From Patescibacteria group bacterium (GTDB lineage: Bacteria > Patescibacteriota > Minisyncoccia > Minisyncoccales > UBA10102): a stretch of 64,000 bases of DNA. Shown piece after piece: positions 3,209 to 59,773 of the stretch (positions within the stretch are counted from its first letter, which is position 1; each line of letters begins with the position of its first letter). The stretch covers positions 270,342 through 334,341 of the forward strand of contig JADFNM010000001.1 in the NCBI GenBank assembly GCA_022563395.1, read 5' to 3'. The notes beneath the pieces were generated by a model. It had not been told where the DNA came from and ran no database searches. It saw only the letters and a list, made by a program, of their open reading frames with translations. A program made the position numbers and the translations under genes.

Positions 3209-4285
3209 ATGGTTCTTTCCAAAATAGAAGAAATAAAAATCCGACTTATGGTGGAAGGTATGGCGGTAGACCCAGGTGTGCGGAACCTAGCCCTTGGCCC
3301 CCTTACTTTAGCTGAGTACGCTTCGACGTCAGGAGTTATCCTGGTGCTTCCAGATGAGGTCTGGGTGAATGCCCCTATTGCGGAACATAACCCAAATTTT
3401 GTTGTCCGGCCTTCCATCATACTCTCTGCGCACGAGGATGAATTGGTACTTCAGGTGAATGGAGAAGAGATCCCAGTTCGATTTAGCCCTATGCCTCAGG
3501 ACCATGAAACAATGAGCCGATTGGGTGCGGTTATACATGCTGACCGTGTGCGCATTTCCCCCGTCGATGGGTGTGCTGTAACCTGCCTATTCTGTAATAT
3601 CCCATATGAGGACAGGTACCAAAGGAGAGAAGCTGCGGATTTGCTGCAAGGCATCACACTCGCGCTCCACGACGAAGTGGTACCGGCACAGCATATCCTT
3701 ATTTCGGGAGGAACCCCTCAACCCGGGGATTACGATTGGTTGAATGAGATGTATGAGCGGGTGGCGAATGCCTTCCGTGCTACCGTGGACATCATGATGG
3801 TACCAGAGGAAGGGTTACTCGACCCCGGGCATCTTAAAGAAATCGGCATTCACGGTCTATCTATCAATCTGGAGGTTTACAACCAAGAAGTCGCCCGGCG
3901 GATCATGGCAGGCAAATGGAAAGTGGGACTTGACCGCTACCTTAATTTCATTGGGAAAGCGGTGGAGATCTTTGGCGAAGGGAAGGTTCGGTCTCTCCTT
4001 CTTGTGGGCATTGAGTCGCTCGAAGATACCTTGCGGGGCGTGAGCGCATTGGCGGAGCGCGGATGCGACCCTGTCTTGAGCCCGTTCCGTCCCGACCCAG
4101 CAACACCCTTGCGGAACAATGTTCCTCCTTCTATAGAGCTCCTTAGGGAGGCATGGGAACGCAGCATAGAGATTGTAGGACGCTATTCAGGAGTCGTCCT
4201 CGGTCCGCGCTGCATCCCCTGCACCCACAACACTTTGACCTTCCCAGATGATAGCGGGAGGTACTACTACTCCCGCGTACACTAG
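3209..4285 (+). CDS. radical SAM enzyme, subfamily unknown, with ~110 aa N-terminal extra domain
   Basis: CAVTCLFC = CX3CX2C cluster motif, ISGGTPQ SAM-binding-like motif. GC-rich relative to flanks. Only large plus-strand gene in the first 20 kb. Confidence 0.8.
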   Translation: MVLSKIEEIKIRLMVEGMAVDPGVRNLALGPLTLAEYASTSGVILVLPDEVWVNAPIAEHNPNFVVRPSIILSAHEDELVLQVNGEEIPVRFSPMPQDHETMSRLGAVIHADRVRISPVDGCAVTCLFCNIPYEDRYQRREAADLLQGITLALHDEVVPAQHILISGGTPQPGDYDWLNEMYERVANAFRATVDIMMVPEEGLLDPGHLKEIGIHGLSINLEVYNQEVARRIMAGKWKVGLDRYLNFIGKAVEIFGEGKVRSLLLVGIESLEDTLRGVSALAERGCDPVLSPFRPDPATPLRNNVPPSIELLREAWERSIEIVGRYSGVVLGPRCIPCTHNTLTFPDDSGRYYYSRVH

Positions 4286-4307
4286 GTAATGAGAGAAGGG
4301 AGAGTAG

Positions 4308-4339
4308 AAGGCCCGTTCACCTGATGAGCGGGCCTTTTC
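4308..4339 (+). terminator. rho-independent terminator after the radical SAM gene
   Basis: Stem AAGGCCCG (4308-4315) / CGGGCCTT (4329-4336) followed by a T-run. Confidence 0.7.
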
Positions 4340-4344
4340 ACTAT

Positions 4345-5466
4345 TCAATGAAGAGAACAAACTTTCTCACGAAAGCCAATCATATTGAATTGTGCTGCTT
4401 GCACAGCGCAATACGCACCTGCTTTGGGAATTGCCACGAGATCGCCTTCACGGAGTTTCGGCATTTTCTTGAAAGGCACAAGTATATCGCCAACTTGGCA
4501 AGAAGCGCCAAGAATTGCTCCGTAGACAAGAGGTGATTTGCGAAAACTATACGGCCTTCTTTCATTTAACAAGCCTCTGATATGATGAATTGTGCCGTCC
4601 GAGAAGAAATAATATCGTCCCCTCCTTTGTAATACGGAATGGATACGGACAATATAATATCCTGCGCCGCGCACGATGTAGTTTCCAGGTTCCACTTGTA
4701 TTTTTAGAATTCTTTTATGTTTCTTGCCGAACTTTTCTGCCTCTGCAATAATTCTTTTTGCATATGTTGTGATATCAAACTCGGACTCCTCGCTTCCAAT
4801 AGGGGCTGCAATACCCCCACCGATGTTAATTACCAGAACAGAAGGATGTTTTTCCGTGATTTTAAGTAACCGCTGAAACGCTTCAATAAATAGACCAATT
4901 CGATATGAGTCCGAGCTTGTATGCATATGTAGTCTTGTTATACGATTTCTTAGTTTCGCAGGAATGCTTCTGAACTCTTCTGGAGAAACACCAAAATGGC
5001 TCTCTTTACTTCCCGAGGCAATTCCTGCCCCGTAACTCCACCCGATACGGGGATTGATGCGCAGTCCCACGTCTTTCATGGAGGCAATCTTTTTAAGGTC
5101 GGGAATACTATTTGCATTTGCTTTTACACTATTCCTCTTTATATATTGCAGTATCTCTGAGGTAAGTACTGGACCAGTGAAAGAAATATCCTTAGAAACT
5201 TTCCTCGCCGCCTTTAGTTCTTCCAAAGAAGAGACATGAAACCCCAAACCCATCCTACTTAGCTGCTTGAGTATCTCTGGGTTATTGTTCGCCTTTACAG
5301 CATAGAGCAGTTTGAAGTTTGTGTACGAAGAGAAGGCATTCTTGATTCTTTCCACCTGGCCTTTTACATGGTTTACATCATACAGAAAAACGGGCGTTCT
5401 TTCGCTCAAGGCTTTAGCATTCTCCAGCGTTGCTTTAATGCACTCAAGATCATTCACCGAAATCAT
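4345..5466 (-). CDS. PLP-dependent fold-type III decarboxylase (Orn/DAP/Arg decarboxylase family, LysA-like)
   Basis: YAVKANNNPEIL PLP-lysine motif and INIGGG glycine loop. Starts 5 nt after the ATP-grasp stop codon. Confidence 0.8.
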   Translation of the reverse strand: MISVNDLECIKATLENAKALSERTPVFLYDVNHVKGQVERIKNAFSSYTNFKLLYAVKANNNPEILKQLSRMGLGFHVSSLEELKAARKVSKDISFTGPVLTSEILQYIKRNSVKANANSIPDLKKIASMKDVGLRINPRIGWSYGAGIASGSKESHFGVSPEEFRSIPAKLRNRITRLHMHTSSDSYRIGLFIEAFQRLLKITEKHPSVLVINIGGGIAAPIGSEESEFDITTYAKRIIAEAEKFGKKHKRILKIQVEPGNYIVRGAGYYIVRIHSVLQRRGRYYFFSDGTIHHIRGLLNERRPYSFRKSPLVYGAILGASCQVGDILVPFKKMPKLREGDLVAIPKAGAYCAVQAAQFNMIGFREKVCSLH

Positions 5467-5471
5467 AGTAC

Positions 5472-6875: not shown

Positions 6876-6883
6876 TCTTCAAT

Positions 6884-6958
6884 CTATCAAAAAATCGCCT
6901 GTTTGGCGACTTTGAGTCCCCCTTTATACATACAAGTCCGGCTTCATATATTGGACGT
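6884..6958 (-). repeat. family-A module, copy 6 (long form)
   Basis: Directly upstream of the ATP-grasp ATG (6875). Confidence 0.85.
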
Positions 6959-7089
6959 CTTATGGTCCTACTGCACATATTCTCCAAGTCTCCTATCTCA
7001 GGTCAACAAAAGACAAAGATAAAAAAAAGAGGAAGTAGTCAATTAAGTGACTACCCCCTCATGAAAATCCCGAAGGATTCCCTTTAAAC

Positions 7090-7989
7090 CTAGCTGACAA
7101 CATCCAGAGGCAGATCTATCTCGTAGCCCTCCAGTAGTTCGTCTAGGAACGCTGCCGTCTGTGGATCAGCCTCTACCAAAGGCAGACGCAGCCCACCAAC
7201 CGGGAAACCCACCTCATTCAGGCAATACTTCACAGGTATGGGGCTGGTGACCACAAACAGGCCCTTGGCCAAGGGAAGCTGCCGCAGGTGCTCAGACGCA
7301 GCCTTCTGCAACCTGCCTTCCACGGTCAGATTGATGAGCCGCTTGATCTGCTGCCCAATGAGGTGCGAGGCAACGCTCACCACCCCGTAACCTCCAAGGC
7401 TGAGGACGCCGAATGTGTCTGAGTCATTCCCGCTCCACACTTTGAACCCGTCTGGCGCGTTCCGAATGATCTCTCCGATCTGGTGGAAGTCTCCGGAAGC
7501 CTCCTTGACGCCAACGATGTTAGACACTTCGGCCAGACGCAACGTGGTCTCAGCCGTCATGTTGACGATGGTGCGGCTGGGCACGTTGTACAGAATGCAG
7601 GGCAACTCCACACTCTCAGCTATCGTCCTGAAGTGCAGATACAGGCCCTCTTGCGTGGGCTTATTGTAGTAAGGCACCACGAGCAAGAGAGCATCGGCTC
7701 CCGCTTCCTTCGCTTCCCGCGAAAGGTGCACGGATTCATCAGTTCCGTTGGTACCGGAACCCGCAATGACCGCTGCTGTGTCCCCTACCGCATTCTTGAC
7801 TGCAGCCCACAGCTTGACGTTCTCTTCGTGAAAGAGCACTGGATTCTCGCCCGTGGTGCCGGTGACCACGAGGCCGTCGCTCCCAGAGGCCACAAGGGCC
7901 TTGGCCAAAAGCCTTGCTCTCTCAAGATCCACGCCACCATCTTCTCTAAACGGCGTCACCATTGCAGTAACGAGTCTTCCAATTTCCAT
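7090..7989 (-). CDS. dapA: 4-hydroxy-tetrahydrodipicolinate synthase
   Basis: DapA/NAL family signatures (VVTGTTGE, YNVPSRT). GC-rich. GGAGG 7 nt upstream of the ATG. Confidence 0.9.
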   Translation of the reverse strand: MEIGRLVTAMVTPFREDGGVDLERARLLAKALVASGSDGLVVTGTTGENPVLFHEENVKLWAAVKNAVGDTAAVIAGSGTNGTDESVHLSREAKEAGADALLLVVPYYNKPTQEGLYLHFRTIAESVELPCILYNVPSRTIVNMTAETTLRLAEVSNIVGVKEASGDFHQIGEIIRNAPDGFKVWSGNDSDTFGVLSLGGYGVVSVASHLIGQQIKRLINLTVEGRLQKAASEHLRQLPLAKGLFVVTSPIPVKYCLNEVGFPVGGLRLPLVEADPQTAAFLDELLEGYEIDLPLDVVS

Positions 7990-8185
7990 TTCACTACCTC
8001 CATATTATTGTGACTTCTCCGTCAGTCTCTCGTCGCCAACCCCTTCATGAGATATCGTGCCTTCCTTTCTCCCTTTCCATAGAATCAGGATTTTTCATTC
8101 TTACTACCGGCTCTCTCCAGTAAGAATATTGTTAATGTACTTTGTGAGCCGATGAAGAGAGGTATGATCTCCCTTCATCGACACA

Positions 8186-8223
8186 TAAAAACCCGCCTTT
8201 CTGGCTTATCCAAGAAGGCGGGT
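8186..8223 (-). terminator. intrinsic terminator inside the dapA upstream leader
   Basis: Minus strand ACCCGCCTT-N15-AAGGCGGGT followed by TTTTT. Confidence 0.65.
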
Positions 8224-8249
8224 TCAAATGGCTTTATCTATCTAATGGA

Positions 8250-8333
8250 TTACAGCTTTTGCCAAGCGAAAATACGCGCCTTCTTGAAGGGCTTCTTCGC
8301 TTTTTTCTCGTCTATCATAAACAAATGCAACAT
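8250..8333 (-). CDS. candidate Lys-rich mini-ORF (27 aa, or 22 aa from the ATG at 8318)
   Basis: Hand translation MLHLFMIDEKKAKKPFKKARIFAWQKL*. Lies between a TTGACA-containing promoter-like stretch and the terminator at 8186-8223. Confidence 0.2.
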   Translation of the reverse strand: MLHLFMIDEKKAKKPFKKARIFAWQKL

Positions 8334-8374
8334 ATACTTTAATGTATAAGAAGAAGCTCAGGGTGTCAAGCACA

Positions 8375-8403
8375 CTTGAGTCCGGCTTCATATATTGTGG
8401 GAC
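8375..8403 (-). repeat. family-A module, copy 7 (distal box only)
   Basis: CTTGAGTCCGGCTTCATATATTGTGGGAC, just after the DUF3179 stop. Confidence 0.8.
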
Positions 8404-8429
8404 ACTACTCCCCCCCTACAAGATAACGT

Positions 8430-9500: not shown

Positions 9501-9507
9501 CTTTACC

Positions 9508-9582
9508 CTATCAAAAAACCGCCTTTTTGGCGACTTTGAGTCCCCTCTATACGCTTGAGTCCGGCTTCATATATTGTAAGAC
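9508..9582 (-). repeat. family-A module, copy 8 (long form, closest to consensus)
   Basis: Fills the gap between the phosphatase stop (9582) and the DUF3179 ATG (9500). Confidence 0.9.
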
Positions 9583-10214: not shown

Positions 10215-10217
10215 ATT

Positions 10218-10251
10218 CCTATCGTAACAAAAAACCGCCTTTTTGGCGATC
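10218..10251 (-). repeat. family-A module, copy 9 (hairpin part only)
   Basis: CCTATCGTAACAAAAAACCGCCTTTTTGGCGATC, 4 nt upstream of the phosphatase ATG. Confidence 0.85.
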
Positions 10252-10326
10252 TATTGGCCCTGGAAGACCTTTCGACAGACTCAGGGCGGGGGCCAGGCAT
10301 TTCTCGCTCCCTCATTCACCCTTTTT

Positions 10327-10376: not shown

Positions 10377-10395
10377 TGTGGATAACTCAGGAAAA

Positions 10396-11517: not shown

Positions 11518-12771
11518 TTAGCGAAATCTGCTCTGCCGCCTGCCAAATCCTGTATGTCGCTGCCTAGACCCGCTACGTCCACGCCCTCTCTGCTGGGGCC
11601 GGGAAGGCCTCTCTACTGCCCGCGACTTGGGAGCGGCCAAAATACCCTCCGGGAGAGGTAAAGCGAGGATTCGCTTTTGGATTGCTCGCTCTATGGCACG
11701 AACCTCTTTCCCTTCGCTCACCATAGCAAAAGTAATGGCGTGTCCCTTGGTGCCGGCTCTCGCCGTGCGCCCGATGCGATGAACGTAGTCATCTGAAGTA
11801 CCTGGCAAATCATAGTTCAAGACCAGCTCAATGCCCATAACGTCAATGCCTCTTGAAGCAATGTCGGTCGCCACGAGCACACGGTATTTCCCGGACTTGA
11901 ATCCGTCTAACGCCTCCCTTCTTTGGTTCAAACTCCTGTTGGAATGCAACTCTGAGGCCCGTATGCCAAGATCCCGTATCTGGCGCGCCACTTTCTTTGC
12001 TCCATACTTTGTTCTGGTAAACACAAGAGTTGGGCCCTTGTAGCTTTCAAGCAGTCGTTTTAAAAGTTCTGGCTTCTGCTCTCTCGCAACCACGAAAAGC
12101 TCTTGTGAAACCTCTTCTAGGGTTGTGCCGGGCGGGGCAATCTCTACCCGTAGCGGAGTTTTCATATAGTCTGTTGCCAGCTTCATTATCTCGGGGGGCA
12201 TGGTGGCACAAAACAGCATGGTCTGGCGCTCTTTGGGAAGGGCCTTAAGAATGGTTCGAATCTGGGGAAGAAAGCCCATATCAAACATACGGTCCGCCTC
12301 GTCAAGCACCACTATGGAAACGCTGGACAAAGAAAGGGTTTTTTGCAAAAGATGGTCGTTAATTCTTCCCGGTGTTCCAACGATAATGTGCGGCTTACGG
12401 GAGATATCACGGCGCTGTCGTCCAAAGGGAAGTCCGCCAATGAGCACGGCGGTTTTAAGACCCTGCTGTTGTCCCACCTTTTTTAGAAACGCTTCTACCT
12501 GAAGCGCAAGCTCTCGCGTAGGCAGCACCACCAACCCCTGTCTCTTTGTGCCAAGGAGCATTTGTATCATGGGAATGCCAAAAGCAAGGGTCTTTCCGGT
12601 TCCCGTCTGGGCTATGCCTACCAGGTCTTTTCCCTGAATCCCAAGAGGGATGGTACGAACCTGGATAGGGGTGGGTCTGGTGAATCCAGTCCGCTTGAGT
12701 ACCTCTAGGAGACCGGGCGCTATGCCCAATCCATAGAAGTTCTGTTCTCTGTTTTCTGAAGATTCCTGCAT
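11518..12771 (-). CDS. DEAD-box ATP-dependent RNA helicase with Arg-rich C-terminal tail
   Basis: Q-motif/TPIQ, AQTGTGKT, DEAD, HRIGRTARAG. GC-rich. ATG at 12771 preferred over the GTG at 12822. Confidence 0.9.
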   Translation of the reverse strand: MQESSENREQNFYGLGIAPGLLEVLKRTGFTRPTPIQVRTIPLGIQGKDLVGIAQTGTGKTLAFGIPMIQMLLGTKRQGLVVLPTRELALQVEAFLKKVGQQQGLKTAVLIGGLPFGRQRRDISRKPHIIVGTPGRINDHLLQKTLSLSSVSIVVLDEADRMFDMGFLPQIRTILKALPKERQTMLFCATMPPEIMKLATDYMKTPLRVEIAPPGTTLEEVSQELFVVAREQKPELLKRLLESYKGPTLVFTRTKYGAKKVARQIRDLGIRASELHSNRSLNQRREALDGFKSGKYRVLVATDIASRGIDVMGIELVLNYDLPGTSDDYVHRIGRTARAGTKGHAITFAMVSEGKEVRAIERAIQKRILALPLPEGILAAPKSRAVERPSRPQQRGRGRSGSRQRHTGFGRRQSRFR

Positions 12772-12923
12772 AAGAAAAGCCCTGGACGCGCTTGCCAGGG
12801 CACACGTTAGTATAGTATACACTCTTTTTAAGATACTGCAACCTTAAAAATTACAAACTGAATGCTAAAAGCGGCAAAAATCTCAAGTGATGCTGGGCTC
12901 GGTTTAGTTTTCCCCACGCATTT

Positions 12924-13796
12924 CTACCGGGCCACATCCCCGCCGGTAATAAAAATAATCTCGCCCGTCATGTAACTGGAGTCAGCTTCGGAGGCCAGGT
13001 ATACATAGGCCGGAGCCATTTCGTCTGGCTGGCCCGGACGACCCATGGGATTATACTTGCCAAAGTGCACAATATCCTCTTCTGATGAGTCTTTAATAGT
13101 TTGCAAGGGCGTCCAAACTGGCCCTGGAGCAACACAGTTCACGCGAATACCGCGCGGCAAGAGCTCTTTTGCAAGGGTTTTGGTTAAAGTATGCGTTGCA
13201 GCTTTGGTTCCAGAATATATCGGGTAGCCACCTCCACGCGATCCCACTATTGACCCCGTGTTTATGATACATGTACCTTCTTTCATATGTTTGAGTGCAG
13301 CGCGGGTCATGTAATAGTAGCTGAATACGTTCACTTGGTACATGCGTTCCAGCTCTTTGTCCGAGAACTTCTCAATATCGTCTGCAGGGGACATGGTAGC
13401 CACGTTGTTGACAAGGATATCCAGAGAGCCAAACTCCTGCACGGTCTTGTCTACGGCCTTCTGGCAGAAGGCGCTATCTGAAACATCACCCTCAAGGCAC
13501 AGGCACTTTTTGCCCAACTTTTCAATCTCTTGCGTAAGTATCTCTGCGTCCCGGCTTTCTACAGGCAGATACGTAATGGCAACATTTGCGCCCTCTCTGG
13601 CAAACAAAAAGGCAACTGCACGGCCAATTCCTGAATCCCCACCCGTGATGAGAGCGGTTTTCTTAAGAAGCTTGCCAGAGGGTTTGTACTCTTTTCCCTG
13701 ATACTGCGGCAAGGGCTTCATGTCTGCCTCTATCCCAGGGGGTTCTTGGTGCTGGGGTGGAAAAGGCGGGATTGGTCTTTTTGACTCAGACGCCAT
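12924..13796 (-). CDS. SDR family oxidoreductase (YghA / general-stress-protein-39-like)
   Basis: TGGDSGIGRA cofactor motif and YSGTK catalytic motif. Confidence 0.85.
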   Translation of the reverse strand: MASESKRPIPPFPPQHQEPPGIEADMKPLPQYQGKEYKPSGKLLKKTALITGGDSGIGRAVAFLFAREGANVAITYLPVESRDAEILTQEIEKLGKKCLCLEGDVSDSAFCQKAVDKTVQEFGSLDILVNNVATMSPADDIEKFSDKELERMYQVNVFSYYYMTRAALKHMKEGTCIINTGSIVGSRGGGYPIYSGTKAATHTLTKTLAKELLPRGIRVNCVAPGPVWTPLQTIKDSSEEDIVHFGKYNPMGRPGQPDEMAPAYVYLASEADSSYMTGEIIFITGGDVAR

Positions 13797-13799
13797 ACA

Positions 13800-13991
13800 T
13801 TACAGATGTTTCTTGATTAACCCGGTGAGCTCTTGAATGTGGTCTTCTTTATCCTTTTCCATCTTTTCCCAGAAGGCGTTGCAGTTTTCGCACTTCCCCG
13901 CGTCGCGCTTGTACACATCTTTGATGCGCCACAGACTTTTGTGCTCCACCACCAGCTGATTCATCAAGTTATACGTATGATTGTCAAACAT
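13800..13991 (-). CDS. small hypothetical protein (63 aa)
   Basis: ORF starts 3 nt downstream of the SDR gene. No family recognised. Confidence 0.4.
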   Translation of the reverse strand: MFDNHTYNLMNQLVVEHKSLWRIKDVYKRDAGKCENCNAFWEKMEKDKEDHIQELTGLIKKHL

Positions 13992-15617: not shown

Positions 15618-15781
15618 AATTGCAATAATGATTCTTCATTATATTAAGTTTATAAAACAAGAGGGACCTTTCCTCTTGTTTTACTATGGCTTATGGAGAG
15701 ATCCTTGTCAATTCAAATGGAAAGGCCGATGCTGACTGCATCGGCCCTGTGTTCACAGCTTGCGTAGCTCATCCTCCTTTC

Positions 15782-16105
15782 TCAGATTTTGCGTACCAGA
15801 GGAAGCTCGCGAATCAACATAACAAGCTCTACTTCCGCTTCAAGGTTTAAAAGAAGCAGCACTTGCTTGCTGCCTGCTGCCTGGATGCGATAATGCCACA
15901 TCCCGTCGCTCATATACTCTTCCTCAGAGTCAATCCTGGGAGGAGAGAAGAGACTCATGGGTAAAACGATAACCCATGTGTTGTCATCCCTTTGCTCTCG
16001 AAGCTCCGCTTTGAGTAAAGACACCGCTTCTTCTGGCGTCTCTGCTAAAATAACAGCATCCGAGTCCTCTCCCTGAGTGAAAAGCTCATAGGCCTTGAGG
16101 CTCAT
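15782..16105 (-). CDS. hypothetical acidic protein (107 aa)
   Basis: GGAAGGTG SD upstream and a GC-rich hairpin downstream (15721-15748). No family recognised. Confidence 0.4.
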   Translation of the reverse strand: MSLKAYELFTQGEDSDAVILAETPEEAVSLLKAELREQRDDNTWVIVLPMSLFSPPRIDSEEEYMSDGMWHYRIQAAGSKQVLLLLNLEAEVELVMLIRELPLVRKI

Positions 16106-16200
16106 TACACACCTTCCTTTTTAGAATGATCAAAAGGGCACCACTTTTATACATGAAAAAGAAGCTTTTGTCAACCTCCGGCAGAAACCAAATCTGTCTT

Positions 16201-23697: not shown

Positions 23698-23721
23698 TTG
23701 GGGCTGCCTGGCGCAACCCTT

Positions 23722-23771
23722 AATATAGAAAGCCCCCTGTCCGCTTCTCCTTACGAGTTGCAGACAGGGGC
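23722..23771 (-). terminator. terminator hairpin after purC
   Basis: Minus strand CCCCTGTC-N20-GACAGGGG followed by TTTCTATATT. Confidence 0.5.
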
Positions 23772-23779
23772 CTTTAGTG

Positions 23780-24781
23780 TCACTCATGCATCCTCTCCGT
23801 CTGGTACCGGACAAGAGGCATACCGGTGATGCGCTCAAAGATCTCCAGATACCTTGAGCTTGCGTCCGACAGGACCTCTTCTGGAACCTTAAGCGAGGCC
23901 ACGAAGGCGAGGTCTTCTGGAGCCTCAGGATCAAGCTTGTTGATTCCTTGCCCCTTTGGCGTCTCCACGGTACGCCCCCAGTTCCGCACCGTCTCCTTGT
24001 CATAGAAGACAGGGTCGCGCCCTTCTTTCATCGCGCGTTCAAAGTCCTCTACTGTAGTAAACCTTGAGGAGTCTGGAGTGAGCACCTCATCGGCAATGAC
24101 GGGCGAGCCGTGTTCATCTACACCTACCTCAAACTTTGTATCGAGGATTAGGATGCCGCGCTTGCGTGCTTCTTCGTACACCAGTGCATAGGCCTTAGCA
24201 AACATGGAAACTACCCGAGGGCCAAGCTGCCCGGTAGCAGCCAGAAACTCATCCTCGGTGATGTTCACGTCGTGCCCGGACTCGGCCTTTGTAGAAGGAG
24301 TGAAGATTGGGGCGCTTAGCTTCTCCCACTTGGTGAGACCGTGAGGAAGCTGCTTGCCCGCAACCATGCCTGTGTCCTGGTATGCGGCCCACACCGACCC
24401 CCCAAGATGACCCCGAAAGATCAGTTCAAAGGGAATCATCTGGAGCTTTTTGACGACGGATGTGCGCTGTGCAGGAATCGATGCAAAATTCCCCATCAGC
24501 ATACCCGAGTCCCTCAAATGGTGAGGAAAACTCGAAAGGACACCGCGCAACCAAAAGTGGGTCAGTGCGGTGAGCACCTCACCCTTCTTCTCCACGAAAG
24601 CGGGGAGAACAAGGTCAAAGATGCTTACGCGATCAGTTGCAACGATCAGAAGCAAGTCAGAGTTTGTTGGATGCGTATAGGTGTCCCGTACCTTCCCCTG
24701 ATACAACCGGTCCAGTCCACCCTTCCTCAGTTCCTTACTGAACGGTGACTCTCGTACCATCTTTGGAATGACAGCTCCCAT
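23780..24781 (-). CDS. purC: SAICAR synthase (long form)
   Basis: LYQGKVRDTY and LLIVATDRVSIFD motifs. GC-rich. Start overlaps the purE stop (ATGA). Confidence 0.85.
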   Translation of the reverse strand: MGAVIPKMVRESPFSKELRKGGLDRLYQGKVRDTYTHPTNSDLLLIVATDRVSIFDLVLPAFVEKKGEVLTALTHFWLRGVLSSFPHHLRDSGMLMGNFASIPAQRTSVVKKLQMIPFELIFRGHLGGSVWAAYQDTGMVAGKQLPHGLTKWEKLSAPIFTPSTKAESGHDVNITEDEFLAATGQLGPRVVSMFAKAYALVYEEARKRGILILDTKFEVGVDEHGSPVIADEVLTPDSSRFTTVEDFERAMKEGRDPVFYDKETVRNWGRTVETPKGQGINKLDPEAPEDLAFVASLKVPEEVLSDASSRYLEIFERITGMPLVRYQTERMHE

Positions 24782-25272
24782 CAGGACCCTCCTTTCCCCT
24801 CAAGATTGTATACGGGCTCTCGTTTATTGCTTTCCAGGTAGACAGTCAGACCGCTTTTCACTCCCTTATCCCCCAGCGCTATGATCTGACAGGCCTGGAT
24901 TGCGGCGTTCCGCAGTCCTGCACTCCCAATCCCCGTACAGGAAACTGAAACTCCAGGGGGCATACGCACAATAGAAAGCAGGGCGTCCATGCCGTCCAGC
25001 ACGTCAGAAGCAAGGGCAACCCCAATCACAGGGCGTTCCTTGACAATAGCTGCTATTGCGCCAGGGAGCGCTGCTGACATGCCAGCCACGCCAATGAACA
25101 CCTTGCCTCCGCTGCTCAGGCAGTAATCCCTGAGCTCCTCGGGATTTCGGTGGGCCGAGATCGCCGCAGCGGTCCAGGAGACCCCGACTTCATCCAAAAC
25201 CTCGAACATCTTTGAGCTTCGCACCGCCTCTTCGTCACTTGTGCTACCAAGGATAACAATTATATCAGCCAT
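24781..25272 (-). CDS. purE: N5-CAIR mutase / AIR carboxylase family protein
   Basis: IIVILGSTSDEE and AGMSAALPG motifs. AAGGAGG SD 6 nt upstream of the ATG at 25272. The longer ORF-track start would overlap dinB. Confidence 0.85.
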   Translation of the reverse strand: MADIIVILGSTSDEEAVRSSKMFEVLDEVGVSWTAAAISAHRNPEELRDYCLSSGGKVFIGVAGMSAALPGAIAAIVKERPVIGVALASDVLDGMDALLSIVRMPPGVSVSCTGIGSAGLRNAAIQACQIIALGDKGVKSGLTVYLESNKREPVYNLEGKGGS

Positions 25273-25354
25273 GACAGGCCTCCTTTGTAATGGGCAATTC
25301 TGAGCAAAGCTCAGATAGGACAGTATACACAGAAAAGAAAAAGAGCGCAAGAGT

Positions 25355-26413: not shown

Positions 26414-26867
26414 AACATAAATAGAAACTAAATTTCATTTAAGCAATATGCGGATATTATATTAAATTTAAGCAGGACCGTTATGACACAATCATTATAT
26501 ACCACGCACAAAACAAAAGCCCCCGATTCGTTCTTTTGGTTCAGAACTACTACGGGGGCTCAGGAGCTGTATCCTGTTGCTGCTTTTCTCGTCAGAAATC
26601 TTCCAGTTCCGCCTCTTCACACTCCTGGCAGATACCATGAGTGGTCTTAAGACGCCGGAAAATCCAGCGGAGGAAAACAACAAAGATGAAACCTGTGTAG
26701 CCCATGTGCTTTCCGCATTTTTATCCTTTTGTCAAACAAAAAGTGCCCCTTGAGGGACTTGATTGGGACCAGTTACTAGAGGAGTTGAAGTACTTAGAGA
26801 AGCTAAGAAATGAATTTACACTCTCTGTAGCAGCCTGAGTGGTATTTGTCTATATATTTATGAGAGA

Positions 26868-26913
26868 AAAGGAAAAGGGTCTCCGGTGCACAATGTGCAG
26901 GGTGGAGACCCTT
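26868..26913 (-). terminator. rho-independent terminator after asd
   Basis: AAGGGTCTCC / GGAGACCCTT 10-bp stem with an inner TGCACAATGTGCA hairpin, T-rich tail on the minus strand. Confidence 0.7.
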
Positions 26914-26916
26914 CTT

Positions 26917-27945
26917 TTAGAGGCGCTGCCGCAGCAACATACCTCTGTGGACCAGTTCTTCTGCAATCTGCACTGCGTTGGTCGCCGCGCCCTTGCGTAG
27001 ATTGTCTGAGACGATCCACATTGCTAGGCCGTTCGGATGCGAGGTGTCGCGACGTATCCGGCCAATGAATACCTCGTCATGTCCAGCAGCATCAATCGGC
27101 ATTGGGTAGACGGCGTTAGACGGGTCGTCGACCACAGAGATGCCAGGTGCACCAGTGAGGATGTCGCGGGCTTCCTCGGGGGTCATGGGGCGTTGGAATT
27201 CTACGAAAACGGCTTCACTGTGTGACACCTGCACCGGGACGCGCACGCACGTTGCTGCGAAGGCAACATCCGGTTCGTGCATGATCTTCTGCGTTTCCTG
27301 GCGCATCTTCACCTCTTCGGAGTAGTAGCCGTCCTCTCCGAGCGAACCGATGTGCGGTATAAGGTTGAGCGCAATCTGGTGGGGATATTGCTTGGGGACC
27401 GCTGGCTTGCCGGCGAGTACCTCACGGGATTGTTCGCTTAACTCTGCCATGGCAGCGGCGCCGGTACCCGACACAGACTGGTACGTGGCGACGACGACCC
27501 GCCTGACCGGGTTCTGTCGGTGCAACGGCCAAAGGGTCATCACCAATGGTGTGGTTGAGCAGTTGGGGATCGAGATGACTCCCTCGTGCTGATCTAGGTC
27601 ATCGCCGTTGACTTCGGGGACAACGAGCGGGACTCTGGGGTCCATGCGCCATACGCTGCTGTCGTCAATAACGATGCACCCTTGCTTTGGTGCAAGCTCG
27701 CCCATCTGGCGACTCATCTCGTCCGTTGCAGAGATGAATGCGATGTCGCACTCGGCCAAGAGACGTTCGTCTACTACCTCTACCGTAATTTCCTCACCCT
27801 TGAACTCAATAGTCTTGCCCACCGAGCGCGGCGAGGCACAAAGACGTAGTGAACTCATAGGGAAGGTGCGTTCCTCCAGCACCTGTAACACAACCTTTCC
27901 CACGGCCCCTGTGGCACCAATGACGACAACTCGAGGGGCATTCAT
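26917..27945 (-). CDS. asd: aspartate-semialdehyde dehydrogenase
   Basis: VVVIGATGAVG Rossmann motif, IPNCSTT active-site Cys, strongly GC-rich. ATG at 27945 preferred. Confidence 0.9.
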   Translation of the reverse strand: MNAPRVVVIGATGAVGKVVLQVLEERTFPMSSLRLCASPRSVGKTIEFKGEEITVEVVDERLLAECDIAFISATDEMSRQMGELAPKQGCIVIDDSSVWRMDPRVPLVVPEVNGDDLDQHEGVISIPNCSTTPLVMTLWPLHRQNPVRRVVVATYQSVSGTGAAAMAELSEQSREVLAGKPAVPKQYPHQIALNLIPHIGSLGEDGYYSEEVKMRQETQKIMHEPDVAFAATCVRVPVQVSHSEAVFVEFQRPMTPEEARDILTGAPGISVVDDPSNAVYPMPIDAAGHDEVFIGRIRRDTSHPNGLAMWIVSDNLRKGAATNAVQIAEELVHRGMLLRQRL

Positions 27946-28062
27946 ATAAAGTACTCCTTTCTGCTGGTTCTCTAGAGAAAAGGATTTCCTTATCTCCAGG
28001 GAACAGCACAAGAGCGCCTTCTCGTTGAGAAATCAGCTGTGAATATCGGTTATTGCTGATAG

Positions 28063-28134
28063 TGCCCCCAGCAGGACTCGAACCTGCAACCAATGGCTTA
28101 AAAGGCCACTGCTCTTCCATTGAGCTATGGGGGC
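28063..28134 (-). tRNA. tRNA-Lys (anticodon UUU)
   Basis: Hand-folded cloverleaf: acceptor GCCCCCA/TGGGGGC, anticodon loop CTTTTAA, T-loop GGTTCGAGTCC. Confidence 0.9.
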
Positions 28135-44925: not shown

Positions 44926-44950
44926 ATTGCTTAAATCTCGTTTAAGCAAT
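44926..44950. repeat. family-B single unit (self-hairpin)
   Basis: ATTGCTTAAA-TCTCG-TTTAAGCAAT, 10-bp stem. Confidence 0.9.
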
Positions 44951-44954
44951 AACG

Positions 44955-44987
44955 GCTCCCCCTGCTGGACGAAGTTAGAACCTGTTT
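44955..44987. repeat. 33-bp direct repeat, left copy (identical at 45516-45548)
   Basis: GCTCCCCCTGCTGGACGAAGTTAGAACCTGTTT is identical at both positions. The two copies bracket the GC-rich orphan gene. Confidence 0.9.
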
Positions 44988-45063
44988 GGTGTAAAGATAA
45001 AGGCCGCTGGGCGAACCATGCGGCCTTGCAATCGGGCAGATTAACACTTCTTCATACTGTGAA

Positions 45064-45456
45064 TCAACCGAGCGCTGGACTGAAGCGTTCGAGTGCTTCT
45101 TGGTCGGCTGGATGCATGTTGTCCGGGCGTGGTTGATCAACCCGGTCATCCATCCCCCAATCTTCCAGTATCTGCGGCTCCCCAATCTTTGGAAGGATGA
45201 GCCGCTCCAGATGTCCTTCTGGAGCAATCACGATCCATCTTGATTGAGAAGCGTCTCGACGGCTGGAGAAGATGACGACCTTGGTCTCACCAGTTACTCC
45301 CTCAAGGAGAGTAACGTGGGGTCTTCGTCGCAACAGCCTCTCTCCGAGAGAGCGTTCCACAGCACCGAGCTTGATCGCAAGATCCGGAGCGAGCTGGACA
45401 TGCCCTTTCTCTTGAAGGAAACGCTCAGCCCTGGAACGTAACACAGAAGTGTTCAT
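45064..45456 (-). CDS. orphan GC-rich hypothetical protein (130 aa)
   Basis: Own promoter and AAGGAAGG SD upstream of the ATG at 45456. Hairpin AAGGCCGC-N12-GCGGCCTT downstream. No family recognised. Confidence 0.55.
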   Translation of the reverse strand: MNTSVLRSRAERFLQEKGHVQLAPDLAIKLGAVERSLGERLLRRRPHVTLLEGVTGETKVVIFSSRRDASQSRWIVIAPEGHLERLILPKIGEPQILEDWGMDDRVDQPRPDNMHPADQEALERFSPALG

Positions 45457-45481
45457 TCTTCTACCTTCCTTTCTAAATGCA

Positions 45482-45510
45482 ACCATACCACATCTCTATG
45501 GTATTGTCAA
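45482..45510 (-). promoter_or_regulatory. sigma70-type promoter of the orphan gene
   Basis: Minus strand TTGACA (45505-45510), 17-nt spacer, TATGGT (45482-45487). Confidence 0.55.
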
Positions 45511-45515
45511 TATTA

Positions 45516-45548
45516 GCTCCCCCTGCTGGACGAAGTTAGAACCTGTTT
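45516..45548. repeat. 33-bp direct repeat, right copy
   Basis: Identical to 44955-44987. Its last bases supply the stop codon of the HIT gene. Confidence 0.9.
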
Positions 45549-45975
45549 AGTTGCTCAATAATTGGAAAAGTCGTTCTTTTTCTTCCCCTGGTAAATCCTT
45601 GTAGAGGGGTTTGCGGTGAATGTCTGCCTTCTCGTGAAGCTCGTCTTGATACTCTCTTGGATAAAGGTGGAAGTGCATATGATTTACGTGGGTTTCACTG
45701 TTTTCAATATAGGGCTTGTAGTTCTGGCGGATATCACACCCAGAGGCGAGTTTATCAAGAATCTTTGCCTGAAACTCAGCAACAAAGTCTATAGTCTCGT
45801 CTCGCTCTTCCTTGGAAAGCTCCTGAAGTTTTCCCTCAATGTGCCTCTTGGGAATGACCAGAAGATGCCCTGGCATGAGCCGTGGATTGCTAAAAATCAC
45901 ATAGGCATACTGCCCGTCTTTGAGTATCCTTCCCTCTTCTTTTGCGGTTGTACAGAATGGACAAGTGTTAATCAT
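45547..45975 (-). CDS. HIT family hydrolase
   Basis: Histidine triad HVNHMHFHL and N-terminal CPFC. Confidence 0.85.
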   Translation of the reverse strand: MINTCPFCTTAKEEGRILKDGQYAYVIFSNPRLMPGHLLVIPKRHIEGKLQELSKEERDETIDFVAEFQAKILDKLASGCDIRQNYKPYIENSETHVNHMHFHLYPREYQDELHEKADIHRKPLYKDLPGEEKERLFQLLSN

Positions 45976-53910: not shown

Positions 53911-53954
53911 CTGCTTAAACGAGATTTAGGAGTTCCTAAATCTCGTTTAAGCAG
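53911..53954. repeat. family-B nested palindrome, perfect 20-bp stem with 4-nt loop
   Basis: CTGCTTAAACGAGATTTAGG-AGTT-CCTAAATCTCGTTTAAGCAG, between groEL and lemA. Confidence 0.95.
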
Positions 53955-53965
53955 TATCCCATGGA

Positions 53966-55991: not shown

Positions 55992-56022
55992 ATAAAAAAG
56001 CCCTTCTTTGGCAAGAAGGGCT
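55992..56022 (-). terminator. rho-independent terminator after the orphan ORF at 56021-56425
   Basis: AGCCCTTCT/AGAAGGGCT stem followed by TTTTTTATTG on the minus strand. Confidence 0.7.
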
Positions 56023-56425
56023 ACTCTCGGGACAGATGCCTCATCTTCCTCACGTGCACCTGGGGACGAGGAATCCCGACGCGAGGAGCAAGATTGCGGC
56101 TGATGCGGTGCGTAAGGTTACTGAATTTCCCCTTCTGGAATCCTTCAGCGGGTTGAACCAGAACCTCAAGAATACGTTTGCGGTCCACGCCCGTCTTAAA
56201 TGAGATGCGTACATCCTCTACTCCAAGCTCTGCTCGGACCACCTCCTCAAGGAACTCGACGTCTTCAATGATTTGGACGCCTTCGTCTCTTCTTTGAGGA
56301 AGGATATCTATGGCTTTGAGCTCAACAGGCTCCTCGTCCTCTGCTTCCTCAGCTTCCTGCTCTGCCTCCTGCGGCCTCCCATTCCGATGAGGTAAAAAGA
56401 GGCGCAGGAATGATAGTATCTCCAT
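56021..56425 (-). CDS. orphan GC-rich hypothetical protein (134 aa, acidic N-terminus, basic C-terminus)
   Basis: GGAGGTG SD 5 nt upstream, TATAAT upstream, own terminator. No family recognised. Confidence 0.5.
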   Translation of the reverse strand: MEILSFLRLFLPHRNGRPQEAEQEAEEAEDEEPVELKAIDILPQRRDEGVQIIEDVEFLEEVVRAELGVEDVRISFKTGVDRKRILEVLVQPAEGFQKGKFSNLTHRISRNLAPRVGIPRPQVHVRKMRHLSRE

Positions 56426-56485
56426 TTCTCACCTCCGTAGGATTATAGTAAGCCGCTTCTAACAAATCATAAAACGGCCGAATTG

Positions 56486-59344
56486 TCAAAGAACCCTGCC
56501 CGTGTAGCTCTTTTTCACTCTTGCTACTTCCTTGGGAGTGCCCTCTGCAACAAGCTCGCCTCCTTTTTCTCCGCCTTCCGGTCCTAAATCCAAAATCCAG
56601 TCTGCATTACGCACCAAATCCAAATTATGCTCAATAACCAGCACGGTGTTTCCTTTATCTACAAGTTCTCCTAAAACCTGCAAGAGTTTTTTTACGTCGT
56701 CAAAATGCAACCCGGTGGTTGGCTCATCTAATATGTACAAGGTCTTTCCTGTTGCTTTCTTTGCAAGCTCTGTTGCCAGCTTTACCCGCTGTGCTTCCCC
56801 GCCAGACAAAGAGGGGGCCGGCTGTCCCAACTCAATATACGAGAGACCAACATCATGTAAGGTTTTTAACTTTGCTGCGAGCGATGGAATGTTCTTGAAA
56901 AACGCCAAGGCTTCCTCTACGGTCATCTCAAGTACCTCTGCAATATTCTTTCCCTTATACTGTACCTCCAGCACTTCTTTCATGTACCTTTTTCCCTGAC
57001 ACTCCTCACACTCAACATACACATCAGGCAAAAAGTACATCTCAATCTTTTTTAACCCTTGGCCTTCACAACTCTCACATCTTCCCCCCTTCACGTTAAA
57101 AGAAAATCTGCCCAAAGCATAGCCCCTTACCCTGGCCTCTCTTGTTCCGGCAAACAAATCACGTACGACAGAGAAAGCTCCGGTATAGGTTGCGGGGTTA
57201 GAGCGCGGCGTTCTTCCAATGGGCGACTGGTCCACCAACACCACCTTATTTACATACTCAATGCCTTCAATTGCTTTGTGTGCTCCCGGCTCTTCTTTTG
57301 CCTTGTAGAACTTTTGGAGCAGGGCTTTTGCCAAAATGTCGTTTATCAAAGAACTCTTCCCAGAACCAGAAACTCCGGTCACGCACACCAACTTTCCCAA
57401 AGGTATTTTTACGTCAATGTTTTTTAAGTTGTTGTGGGAAGCTCCCTTTATTGTAAGGAAATGCTGAGTGGGGTGCTGAGCGGGGTCAGACCCCGCTCTG
57501 CCTTGAAGGGGGGGTCTGACCCCGCTTTGCCTCAACATCGTGACTGTTTTTCTCCCCGCAAGATAATCACCAGTAAGGGTGCGAGATTTCTTCAGTTTTG
57601 CAGGAGTACCCGTAAATGTAACACGGCCTCCGTGCTTTCCAGCTCCGGGGCCAATGTCTATCACCCAGTCAGCAGAGCGGATGGTTTGGGGATCGTGCTC
57701 TACCACTACAATGGTGTTGCCCAATGTGCGCAATTTCTGCAATATTGCAATCAACCTGTATTGGTCTCTTGCATGCAGACCAACCGATGGTTCATCTAAT
57801 ATGTATAAGACTCCGGCGAGCTTAGAACCAATCTGGGTTGCAAGCCGTATTCTCTGCTCTTCTCCCCCAGACAAGGTTCCTGCCTTTCTTGCTAGGGTCA
57901 AATATTCCAACCCAACGTCAATCAAAAACTGAAGTCTATTCAACACTTCTTTTATTATGGGTTGGGCTATCTTCTTTTCGTACTCTTTTAAAGAGAGCTT
58001 GGAGAAAAACTCTTTGGTGTGATTAAGCTGAAGGTTCACTACTTGGTGGATGGATTTTGAGCCAACCGTCACTGCCAAGACCTCTGGCTTTAATCTCTTT
58101 CCTTGGCACTTGACGCAAATCTTCTCAACCATATACTGCTCAATTTCTTCCCTTGCATATTCAGAATCGGTTTCATGGTATCTCCTCTCTAGCCAAGGAA
58201 TCACACCCTCAAACCCCGCACCAGAAGCTTCGCTTCGGTGCGGGGCGGGATCTCCGTAGAGTATTAAATCAATCGCTTTTTTGGGTAAATCCTTAACTGG
58301 ACTATCCAAAGAAAACTTGCGCTCTTTTGCCAAATCCTCCAGTTTCCACCAAAAGAATCCCTGCCTCCCTATCCTATGGGAAGCATGGGCCCAGGGGAAA
58401 ATAGCGCCTTCTGCAATGGAGAGCCGGGGATTGGGAATGACCAGTTTTGGATCAACCTCCAACTTCTCTCCCAACCCTTGGCAGGCAGGGCATGCTCCAA
58501 AAGGAGAATTGAAAGAAAAGACCCTGGGCTCAATCTCTGGCAAAGAGATACCGCAATCCTCGCAGGCAAACCGCTCTGAAAAAACAAGGTCAACATCATT
58601 TTGATTTTTTGCTTTTGATTTTTGACTTATCATCACCATGCCCTTTCCAAGCTTTAACGCGGTCTCTAAAGAATCAACAAGCCGGGGGCGGTCCAAATCA
58701 TTTTCCATGGTCAACCTATCTACTACAACTTCAATGGAATGTTTCTTTTTGCGGTCCAACTCTTTTTCCAGGGCTTCTTCAATGCGGTATACGATACCGT
58801 CAATCCGAACTCGCACAAACCCGGAACGCTGAATCTCTTCTAAAATGCCTTGATGCTCACCCTTTCTTTCTCTTATCACAGGACCTAAAATGGCAACCTC
58901 GGTATCTTTGGGAAGTTTTTGCACCTGCAGCGCAATGTGAGAAACAGATTGCCTGGAAACTACCTTGCCGCAATTTGGGCAATGGGGTATGCCAATCCGC
59001 GCAAACAAAAGACGGAGATAATCATAAATCTCCGTAATGGTTCCAACCGTAGACCTTGGATTGTGCGCCCCTTTTCTCTGGTCAATGGCAATGGCAGGAG
59101 AAATGCCTTCAATGCTGTCTACGTCGGGTTTTTGCATGATACCCAGAAACTGGCGGGCGTATGCACTCAAACTTTCTACATACCTTCTTTGTCCTTCAGC
59201 ATATAAGGTATCAAAGGCAAGAGAGCTTTTCCCAGAACCAGAAAGCCCGGTAATAACCACAAGCTTCCCCTTTGGGATGTCAACGTCAATGTTTTTTAGA
59301 TTATGGACTCTTGCTCCCCTAATTTTAATGAGATCTTGCGCCAT
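56486..59344 (-). CDS. uvrA: excinuclease ABC subunit A
   Basis: Two ABC modules ([18 protein letters not shown]) and zinc fingers. ATG at 59344 preferred over the GTG at 59362. Confidence 0.96.
57478..57526. repeat. two GGGGTC-N-GACCCC palindromes inside the uvrA CDS
   Basis: GAGCGGGGTC-A-GACCCCGCTC (57478-57498) and GGGGGGGTCTGACCCCGCT (57508-57526), preceded by the tandem GCTGAGYGGGG. Confidence 0.9.
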
Positions 59345-59484
59345 GTCGGTGCAATTATACACTCATTATCAAATCATTTCAAGAGATGAATGGGGAACCT
59401 GCAATTATTGACAAAGAGAGAAATATATGATATGAAAAATTCTAGCTCACGGCCAAAAAAATCAGTCAGCAGACGGAGGATACG

Positions 59485-59706
59485 ATGAACGAACAGGAAA
59501 TGCGCCAGGAAAAGATAGCTCTTGTCACAGGCGTCCTATTTGCTGTTTTGGGCGGCGCGTTCGGGTTCTGGATGGGGCTTGAAGCGGCGAGCGAGCCTAT
59601 TGGAATTCTCGCAGGCATGATGGTTGTCGCCTTCGTCGGATACTTTTTCGGAGTTATCCTCGGAGGTATACTCGCCGCACCCCCAGAAAACGGCACTGCA
59701 CACTAA
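59485..59706 (+). CDS. small GC-rich membrane protein (73 aa, two TM helices)
   Basis: Gly/Ala-rich hydrophobic segments. Terminator-like hairpin at 59724-59749. Confidence 0.4.
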   Translation: MNEQEMRQEKIALVTGVLFAVLGGAFGFWMGLEAASEPIGILAGMMVVAFVGYFFGVILGGILAAPPENGTAH

Positions 59707-59773
59707 GCAAACCTGGTCAGTATAGCCCCGGAGTTTCGACTCTGGGGCTTCCTATTTCTGCTATACTATTTTT

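Follow-up and report, generated by a model that had tools for sequence, protein, structure and literature searches.

The 64-kb stretch analysed here (64,000 nucleotides of contig JADFNM010000001.1 from a Patescibacteria group bacterium; hereafter the window) is very probably a patescibacterial backbone of leaderless-type genes free of Shine-Dalgarno (SD) sites, into which foreign pieces of one or two genes have been inserted. Horizontal transfer is demonstrated for three of these units, namely dapA, asd and purE-purC, and the transfer of four or five further units is plausible. The initial annotation had proposed repeated horizontal acquisition, a proposal that stands for dapA, asd and purE-purC on the grounds of donor affinity and empty syntenic sites, and that for the rest is made plausible by composition and expression signals. 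Nearly all genes of the window lie on the minus strand and their content is typical housekeeping, including GrpE-DnaK-DnaJ, GroES/EL, UvrA/C, PyrG, L9, L27, SerS, LysS and GreA as well as PBP2, MreCD, RpoD, DnaG, a Mur ligase, FemAB and CorA.

The G+C content of the whole window is 45.5%, with per-gene medians of 0.447 for total G+C (GC) and 0.467 for third codon positions (GC3). The host had been described as AT-rich; the contrast between it and the GC-rich islets holds, but with 45.5% G+C it is just moderately AT-rich. All eight segments previously singled out as GC-richer than their surroundings are elevated (GC 0.53-0.58, GC3 0.53-0.68): dapA (7090-7989, minus strand; GC 0.57, GC3 0.68), asd (26917-27945, minus; 0.58 and 0.67), the adjoining purC (23780-24781, minus; 0.54 and 0.62) and purE (24781-25272, minus; 0.56 and 0.58), a radical SAM gene (3209-4285, plus; 0.53 and 0.55), a DEAD-box helicase gene (11518-12771, minus; 0.53 and 0.55), the orphan open reading frames (ORFs) orfA (45064-45456, minus; 0.55 and 0.53) and orfB (56021-56425, minus; 0.53 and 0.56), and a small membrane-protein ORF (59485-59706, plus; 0.54 and 0.57). 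Sliding-window and codon comparisons bear out that the profile is not uniform and that the islets are its outliers. Windows of 500 nucleotides (nt) reach their maxima at dapA (0.57) and asd (0.59), and all SD-bearing GC-rich genes have positive leave-one-out codon-usage log-odds, whereas those of the other genes are negative, save three weakly positive ones (corA, orf63 and a DoxX-like ORF). By dinucleotide distance the asd region is the strongest outlier (about 200 as against a window median of 74). Deviant composition and deviant codon usage, by which horizontally acquired islets are recognised, are therefore found together. Raised GC3 alone is no proof of foreign origin, since corA (32131-33048), with a GC3 of 0.57 and no SD, is nonetheless syntenic in a relative (contig L024, see below). 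The DoxX-like membrane ORF (49970-50317; GC3 0.58, codon log-odds +0.07) likewise has no SD.

The compositional contrast is accompanied by a contrast in translation signals. When an SD site is defined as a match of at least 5 nt to AAGGAGGTGA at positions -3 to -20, nine of 67 genes have one: those for the radical SAM protein, DapA, PurE, PurC and Asd, orfA, orfB, the small membrane ORF and an orphan of 107 amino acids (15782-16105) that had not been listed before. Eight of the nine are GC-rich, the ninth being the 107-residue orphan, which is also the single SD gene (1/58) found apart from those eight, where random positions score 8%. Split by composition, genes with GC of at least 0.53 number seven with an SD and none without, compared with two and 58 in the remainder (Fisher p=4e-8), and GC3 is higher in SD than in non-SD genes (Mann-Whitney p=6e-6). 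No SD was found upstream of dnaK, groES, serS and the L27 and L9 genes. The earlier impression of strong SD sites on most islets and of none before dnaK, groES and serS is thus upheld, and so is that of GC-rich intrinsic terminators, a hairpin with a T-run following each SD-bearing unit.

How, then, would the native genes do without SD sites? The answer probably lies in their promoters, as -10 boxes placed 6 nt upstream of the starts are the layout expected of leaderless genes. In 12 of the 58 native genes a -10-like hexamer, often TG-extended (TGnTAnnnT), stops precisely 6 nt short of the ATG, and one lies 5-9 nt before the ATG in 21 native genes, with 4.2 expected per 5-nt bin. These boxes precede the first genes of native operons, while the genes inside operons are tightly packed and devoid of SD. 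The same arrangement recurs in the relative L024, with TGGTATACT-N8-ATG before DinB and TGATATACT-N7-ATG before Ctp. The native genes of the window hence combine a positional peak of -10 boxes at 6 nt, where a spacing of about 6-7 nt to the start codon is expected of leaderless genes, with the lack of an SD, and this spacing implies that their mRNAs would be leaderless. Such boxes, at a short and constant distance from the ATG, serve as the genomic signature by which leaderless genes are recognised (Zheng et al. 2011, PMC3160421; GeneMarkS-2, PMC6028130), and the anti-SD motif was detected in just 48% of 16S genes of Parcubacteria (Tsurumaki et al. 2022, PMC9297842), so that an SD-poor host is not new in itself. 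In lacking SD sites and in having -10 boxes at a fixed short distance, the native genes resemble those treated in that literature; however, these works describe genome-wide modes of initiation, whereas here two modes coexist and separate native from acquired genes. This SD-versus-leaderless contrast is the single fresh angle of the finding.

The two acquired genes of the diaminopimelate (DAP) pathway have an identifiable origin. The dapA unit (7021..8001, minus strand) comprises an SD (GGAGGT, 7996-8001), the coding sequence for 299 amino acids (Pfam DHDPS, 1e-87, 294 bits) and two terminator hairpins (7021-7082); the asd insert (26414..28061, minus strand), which lies directly downstream of a tRNA-Lys gene and in which a spacer of about 450 nt separates asd from DinB, comprises an SD (AAAGGAG, 27954-27960), the coding sequence for 342 amino acids (Pfam Semialdhyde_dh, 107 bits, and Semialdhyde_dhC, 178 bits) and a terminator (26873-26911). 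Both products match their families over the full length and are orthologous to members of dap operons. The best non-self matches of DapA are 71-79% identical, many of them on contigs longer than 1.5 Mb, and among the top 120 the ten that bear an organism name are all Chloroflexi, Dehalococcoidia or SAR202. For Asd the best matches are 66-71% identical and the five named ones all belong to Chloroflexota lineages (labelled Dehalococcoidia in two cases, and SAR202, Chloroflexota and Chloroflexi in one each). The closest homologues of both proteins are hence found in a distant lineage. The two match lists have contigs in common, and the donor-type contigs that were opened carry dapB-asd-dapA or asd-dapA followed by the genes for PNPase and S15; to the proteins of the dapB-asd-dapA operon in one of them (L009), the DapA and Asd of the window are 71-75% identical. 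Donor-type contigs have 66-70% G+C and a GC3 of 0.91-0.95, and the patescibacterial copies, with a GC3 of 0.63-0.68, stand about half-way between these relatives and the host. This intermediate position between donor-type relatives (GC3 about 0.92) and host (0.47) marks them as old, partly ameliorated acquisitions.

A sister species (about 80% nucleotide identity) shows what has been kept of the dapA unit. There, dapA follows directly upon an AhpC-like gene, which in the window lies 6 kb away, and its GC is 0.56 as against 0.42 for this neighbour; it is equipped with TTGACA-N17-TAGTAT, AGGGAGGTGA and a GC-rich terminator, and the only parts that can be aligned between the two species are the SD and the coding sequence. 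The two patescibacterial DapA are sisters at 86% identity, nested among donor-type sequences in a neighbour-joining tree, which argues that dapA entered before the two species split. Conservation of the SD between diverged flanks suggests that it is used, which in turn predicts that the host 16S rRNA keeps its anti-SD; in a 10-kb extension to the right of the window, housekeeping genes only and no 16S rRNA gene were found. The leader that had been attributed to dapA matches no Rfam family, nor did any family match upstream of asd or purE, even at E <= 0.5. A lysA-like pyridoxal-phosphate (PLP) decarboxylase of native composition (181 bits, under the lysA cutoff of 298) is also encoded in the window. 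Together with an ATP-grasp ligase it forms an operon of native composition (4345-6875) between the radical SAM and dapA islets, so that genes for DAP/lysine-type chemistry, some acquired and some native, lie close together here.

Did asd and dapA arrive together, as one dapB-asd-dapA piece from a donor of Dehalococcoidia type that was later broken up, with loss of dapB? In every donor-type contig examined the two genes lie side by side, the same donor contigs are matched by both, their GC3 values in the window are nearly equal (0.67 for asd and 0.68 for dapA), and the surroundings of dapA have been rearranged between the two patescibacterial species, all of which would suit a single event. Nevertheless, the genes are 19 kb apart in the window, and a tblastn search of the window with donor DapB, Asd and DapA revealed no dapB and no operon relic beside either of them, that is, neither asd nor dapB next to dapA and no dapB next to asd. 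Moreover, no Asd of more than 71% identity, whether from the dapA-bearing sister species or from any other, was found in a collection of 5.8 billion proteins; being an absence of evidence, this no more than hints that asd was a separate, later event. Finally, asd occupies a tRNA hotspot and its dinucleotide anomaly is much stronger than that of dapA. On balance a joint arrival is possible but somewhat unlikely.

Evidence for insertion comes from relatives in which the sites of asd and purE-purC are empty. The tRNA-Lys(UUU) gene (28062..28134, minus strand; ARAGORN and Rfam), on the 3' side of which asd was inserted, is kept between DnaJ and DinB in four relatives. Syntenic relatives were found by a metagenome scan with DinB, and in L024 (39% G+C; 88% amino-acid identity in DnaK, 70% in DinB) the gene order is the same as in the window, FemAB-FtsQ-CorA-GrpE-DnaK-DnaJ-tRNA-Lys-DinB-Ctp-L9-PyrG-L27. 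There, tRNA-Lys and DinB are separated by 66 nt, versus 1648 nt holding asd in the window, and DinB and Ctp by a few dozen nt at most, versus about 1.66 kb holding purE-purC. Two more relatives, L029 and L030, concur: the order GrpE-DnaK-DnaJ-tRNA-Lys-DinB-Ctp-L9-PyrG-L27 is kept and neither asd nor purE-purC is present. Empty syntenic sites are thus established for asd and purE-purC in three relatives, while for dapA it is the context that differs in the sister species. At the spot of asd, between tRNA-Lys and DinB, L029 has a different gene (3984-4655, 223 amino acids, no Pfam match), whose SD is perfect (AAGGAGGTGA) and whose GC3 is 0.37 as against 0.26-0.28 for its neighbours, which makes the tRNA-Lys flank a recurrent landing site. 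These relatives have 36-39% G+C and gene GC3 values of 0.21-0.43, compared with a GC of 0.44-0.47 for the same backbone genes of the window, so that the host lineage itself appears to have shifted upward in G+C. The spacer between DnaJ and tRNA-Lys measures 280 nt in the window versus about 20 nt in L024. It contains one copy (28248-28307) of a 60-nt repeat with a perfect 10-bp hairpin, the other copy of which (47994-48053, 87% identity) lies in the 5' coding part of rpoD; the repeat may be a small mobile palindromic element.

The purE-purC insert (23698..25354, minus strand) contains a -10-like TATACT (25322-25327), purE and purC behind SD sites of their own (25279-25285 and 24787-24794, respectively), and a strong terminator (23729-23772); the products belong to Pfam AIRC and SAICAR_synt. 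The promoter box of Ctp is intact right at the edge of the insert, which moves the start of Ctp to 23679. No representative protein is more than 57% identical to PurC. Its nearest relatives reach 48-57%, and the named ones at the top are Patescibacteria in three of four cases (including Ca. Campbellbacteria) and Myxococcales in the fourth; scanning a genome collection with PurC returned only four distant loci of 35-42% identity (Vicinamibacterales, Acidobacteriota and Tritonobacter) and no donor. Taken together, these relatives, the empty site, the shift in GC and the SD sites make a second Patescibacterium, richer in G+C, the most probable source of purE-purC, intra-phylum transfer being the commonest route reported for these bacteria (Gios et al. 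2025, mSystems, PMC12455944).

The events behind this arrangement may be pictured as follows. Foreign pieces of one or two genes were very probably inserted, one event at a time and from more than one donor, into intergenic spacers of a conserved backbone: asd and dapA from Chloroflexota of Dehalococcoidia/SAR202 type, in which both sit in a dapB-asd-dapA operon, purE-purC most probably from the said GC-richer Patescibacterium, and the radical SAM gene, the two orphans, the small membrane protein and the 107-residue orphan presumably from other sources. Each piece has kept or gained leadered signals: the start is preceded at 5-8 nt by an SD, a GC-rich intrinsic terminator is the rule, and some pieces also have a sigma-70-like promoter. 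Carrying these signals along, such pieces should be translatable wherever they land among leaderless units.

The units for which composition and signals make a foreign origin plausible are built on the same plan. The radical SAM unit (3149..4338, plus strand) has a promoter-like sequence (3149-3176), an SD (GGGAGGT, 3195-3201), a gene for 358 amino acids and a terminator (4310-4338); its product matches Pfam Radical_SAM and, under the curated cutoff, the NCBIfam model variant_rSAM, its codon log-odds is +0.055, and neither viral relatives in IMG/VR nor a PDB relative by sequence were found. In the orfA cassette (44947..45551, minus strand), a TTGACA-N17-TATGGT promoter (45482-45510), an SD (45463-45471), the gene for 130 amino acids and a terminator (44998-45025) are enclosed by direct repeats (45508-45551 and 44947-44990). 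The repeat, whose first position lies 2 nt ahead of the stop codon with which the upstream HIT gene closes, is exact over 33 nt or 91% identical over 44 nt, far beyond chance (the 99th percentile of chance flanking repeats is 12 nt), and suggests a site-specific insertion; the cassette is present in all seven same-species contigs, with no empty site among them. A single-sequence AlphaFold model of orfA has a pLDDT confidence score of 50. The orfB unit (55994..56447, minus strand), situated between uvrA and groES, consists of a TATAAT -10 box (56442-56447), the SD GGAGGTGA (56429-56436), a gene for 134 amino acids with a codon log-odds of +0.084 and a terminator (55994-56020). No Pfam, NCBIfam or PHROG match was obtained for orfA or orfB, and at 90% identity the orphans form clusters of just one or two members. 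The small membrane-protein unit (59408..59749, plus strand) lies between the divergent uvrA and uvrC and contains TTGACA (59408-59413), an SD (GGAGG, 59475-59479), a gene for 73 amino acids with two hydrophobic stretches (codon log-odds +0.143; hypothetical protein in the NCBI annotation) and a terminator (59724-59749). The 107-residue orphan (unit 15719..16119, minus strand) has the SD AAGGAAGGTG (16110-16119) and a GC-rich terminator (15719-15746), with a GC of just 0.49 and a GC3 of 0.53; it, too, has no match in Pfam, NCBIfam or PHROG. A tblastn search with the island proteins against all fetched non-self loci yielded nothing further.

The DEAD-box helicase, which had been counted among the islets, does not share the pattern. 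It belongs to a block (11518..13991, minus strand) with an SDR oxidoreductase gene (12924-13796) and a 63-residue ORF (13800-13991; GC3 0.67, weak HNH hits in PHROG). The helicase and the oxidoreductase match Pfam DEAD/Helicase_C and adh_short, and CshA/RhlE-like and PRK06701-like models in NCBIfam, respectively. The GC of the block is 0.51-0.53 (0.51 for the SDR gene), no SD is seen, and the codon log-odds of the two enzymes are about 0 (-0.02 and -0.01), between host and island values. The origin of this block is ambiguous.

Several considerations weigh against the picture of foreign leadered pieces in a leaderless backbone. Leaderless transcription is deduced from motif spacing and not from mapped 5' ends, and use of the SD sites solely from the fact that they are conserved. 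For DapA, the tree was quickly made from top hits without a broad outgroup. With relatives at 48-57% identity, three of the four named ones from Patescibacteria, PurC could possibly reflect long residence in the phylum followed by relocation. The helicase has no SD and codon usage close to native, and for the DEAD/SDR block, as for the radical SAM gene, the orphans and the small membrane ORF, only composition and signals speak for a foreign origin.

Are the units then loaded by a dedicated capture system, integron-like or based on a tRNA-targeting integrase, which deals in self-contained cassettes? The initial annotation had raised such a systematic mechanism, and some observations would fit it: the direct repeat around orfA, the position of asd immediately 3' of tRNA-Lys where a relative holds a different SD-led gene, and a tyrosine-recombinase gene situated outside the window, about 2.7 kb to its left. 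These hallmarks of mobility are, however, confined to asd and orfA and are seen at no other unit; flanking repeats exceed chance in just one of eight units, and the repeat of orfA neither folds nor occurs in viral contigs. No integrase, transposase or attC-like element is annotated within the window. The units share no flanking repeat, are scattered over 56 kb rather than arrayed, and derive from two donor groups or more, the DAP genes pointing to Chloroflexota and purC to other Patescibacteria. A common capture machinery is accordingly improbable, and the claim is not sustained. Integron cassettes are promoterless, arrayed next to intI and bounded by attC hairpins. The units described here likewise are small and mostly single-gene, and one of them is bracketed by repeats, but they are dispersed, have signals of their own and show no attC-like fold, and neither intI nor an attC-bounded array adjacent to it is found among the annotated genes of the window. 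The asd insert resembles tRNA-adjacent genomic islands in its position directly 3' of tRNA-Lys, in the presence of a different gene there in a relative and in its atypical composition; it differs from them in being a one-gene insert of 1.6 kb that has neither an integrase nor flanking repeats and has not duplicated the 3' end of the tRNA.

The opposite view would be that the GC-rich genes belong to the host and have been lost by the relatives, with gene-specific selection (for expression, amino acids or leadered regulation) accounting for their composition and their SD sites. This would agree with the patescibacterial identity of the closest named PurC relatives, with the mild shift of the DEAD helicase and SDR genes and with the somewhat raised G+C at first and second codon positions of these enzymes. 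Yet the shift is largest at third positions (0.62-0.68 versus 0.47), and the highly expressed groEL, dnaK, L27 and L9 have ordinary GC and no SD. At 66-79% identity to Chloroflexota proteins, DapA and Asd lie far above what vertical descent across phyla would leave. In addition, three relatives at different distances are without asd and purE-purC, for which gain requires fewer events than loss. A native origin is thus very improbable.

That GC-rich fragments of Chloroflexota and others were misjoined into a patescibacterial contig during assembly or binning is the default worry in a metagenome-assembled genome with sharp compositional steps, and three assemblies do break at a common point near 43160, but such chimerism is excluded for the junctions examined and overall has next to no probability: independent assemblies from four samples (two scaffold-named and two k141-named) are colinear with positions 1-17989 at 99.8-100% identity, across the borders of the radical SAM, dapA and DEAD/SDR islets, the junctions of the orfA region are common to seven same-species contigs, and a second species has dapA beside a native gene. 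Furthermore, island proteins that are just 66-79% identical to donor-type proteins, and half ameliorated, cannot stem from reads of a co-occurring donor. The joins examined, of the kind that the initial annotation had wished to see secured against chimeric assembly, are in this way confirmed. As for the point near 43160, it falls inside the PBP2 gene (41848-43761), where assemblies L017, L018 and L019 end together and the window and L016 read through, which suggests a repeat or a strain variant. A phage origin was considered and rejected, there being no PHROG match apart from the weak HNH hits of the 63-residue ORF, no IMG/VR relatives of the radical SAM gene, orfA and orfB and no orfA repeat in viral contigs, with housekeeping genes on the flanks.

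The foreign leadered pieces nevertheless invite a comparison with phage morons, which are reportedly autonomous promoter-gene-terminator units of deviant G+C lodged between genes. Like them, the units of the window are single genes with their own start signals and a factor-independent terminator, placed in a spacer and deviant in composition; unlike them, they are not in a prophage, have no viral relatives that could be found and include core biosynthetic enzymes in their cargo. By analogy, they would behave like chromosomal counterparts of morons, as self-sufficient leadered units in the spacers of a leaderless backbone.

The case is a well-resolved instance of a known phenomenon, since transfer into Patescibacteria and SD loss in Parcubacteria have both been published, and no current concept is changed by it. 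Hundreds of islands and individually transferred genes are on record for Patescibacteria, mostly of intra-phylum origin; transfers are mostly old, with occasional donors from other phyla, and amount to up to 13% of genome length (Gios et al. 2025, PMC12455944). Short acquired segments in streamlined patescibacterial genomes are common to that survey and to the present window, in which they account for about 7-10 kb of 64 kb. By contrast, the donor phyla in Table 1 of the survey do not include Chloroflexota, whereas the DAP genes of the window point to Dehalococcoidia/SAR202, and neither the SD-versus-leaderless contrast nor empty-site synteny is described there. The most useful by-products of the case are its split between SD-led and leaderless genes and its signal of a Chloroflexota donor. 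The window offers a worked example of how a symbiont-type genome of about 0.7 Mb acquires and keeps biosynthetic genes (asd, dapA, purE and purC), with empty sites and an identifiable donor lineage, and where a lineage makes no use of SD sites, finding one upstream of a gene would be a cheap flag for acquired DNA. One may speculate further that SD-led initiation survives on acquired genes only and is conserved there through speciation, as a long-lived foreign tag as well as a functional need, with ribosomes running both modes, and that repeated uptake of DAP genes singles out Dehalococcoidia/SAR202 as the bacteria that host this presumed episymbiont or are its physical partners. We regard this combined proposal as rather unlikely, but if the donor signal does reflect physical association, Chloroflexota-derived genes could help to find partners of uncultured marine or subsurface Patescibacteria.

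A few features of the backbone deserve mention in their own right. The non-island genes of the left 11 kb (120-11386) make up a third compositional class, with a GC3 of 0.25-0.44 (mean about 0.37, as against about 0.46 in the rest of the backbone) and codon log-odds among the most negative of the window; this part may be a separate AT-rich accessory region. Concentrated there is a terminator-plus-promoter module, read on the minus strand and present in 12-14 copies, which consists of a palindrome TCGCC-A5-GGCG(A/G), a T6 run and GATAGaaT, with an ATG 5-6 nt later. It is found at 289-325, 585-621, 967-1003, 1529-1565, 3085-3121, 6873-6909, 9497-9533, 10213-10249, 10768-10804, 11388-11424, 14038-14074, 15224-15260, 44829-44865 and 46379-46415. 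Another conserved box, GTCCCACAATATATGAAGCCGGACTCAAG, is present in 8 copies and frequently lies ahead of the module, and some compensatory changes occur at the stem positions of the latter. The hairpin and T-run of the module appear to end one gene, while the overlapping TGnTAnnnT box appears to start the next as a leaderless unit. At the right end of the window, a tRNA gene (63927-64000; Rfam 33.5 bits) is cut off and lacks its 3' end. Finally, a family of AT-rich palindromic repeats (TGCTTAAACGAGATTTAGG / CCTAAATCTCGTTTAAGCA) occupies many intergenic spacers (10323-10400, 11434-11511, 26429-26448, 34894-34913, 39751-39794, 44884-44962, 46421-46563, 53911-53956 and 61244-61314), with a 79-nt version occurring twice at 94% identity (44884-44962 and 46485-46563); unlike the GC-rich terminators of the islands, these are presumably native terminators or elements resembling repetitive extragenic palindromes (REP).

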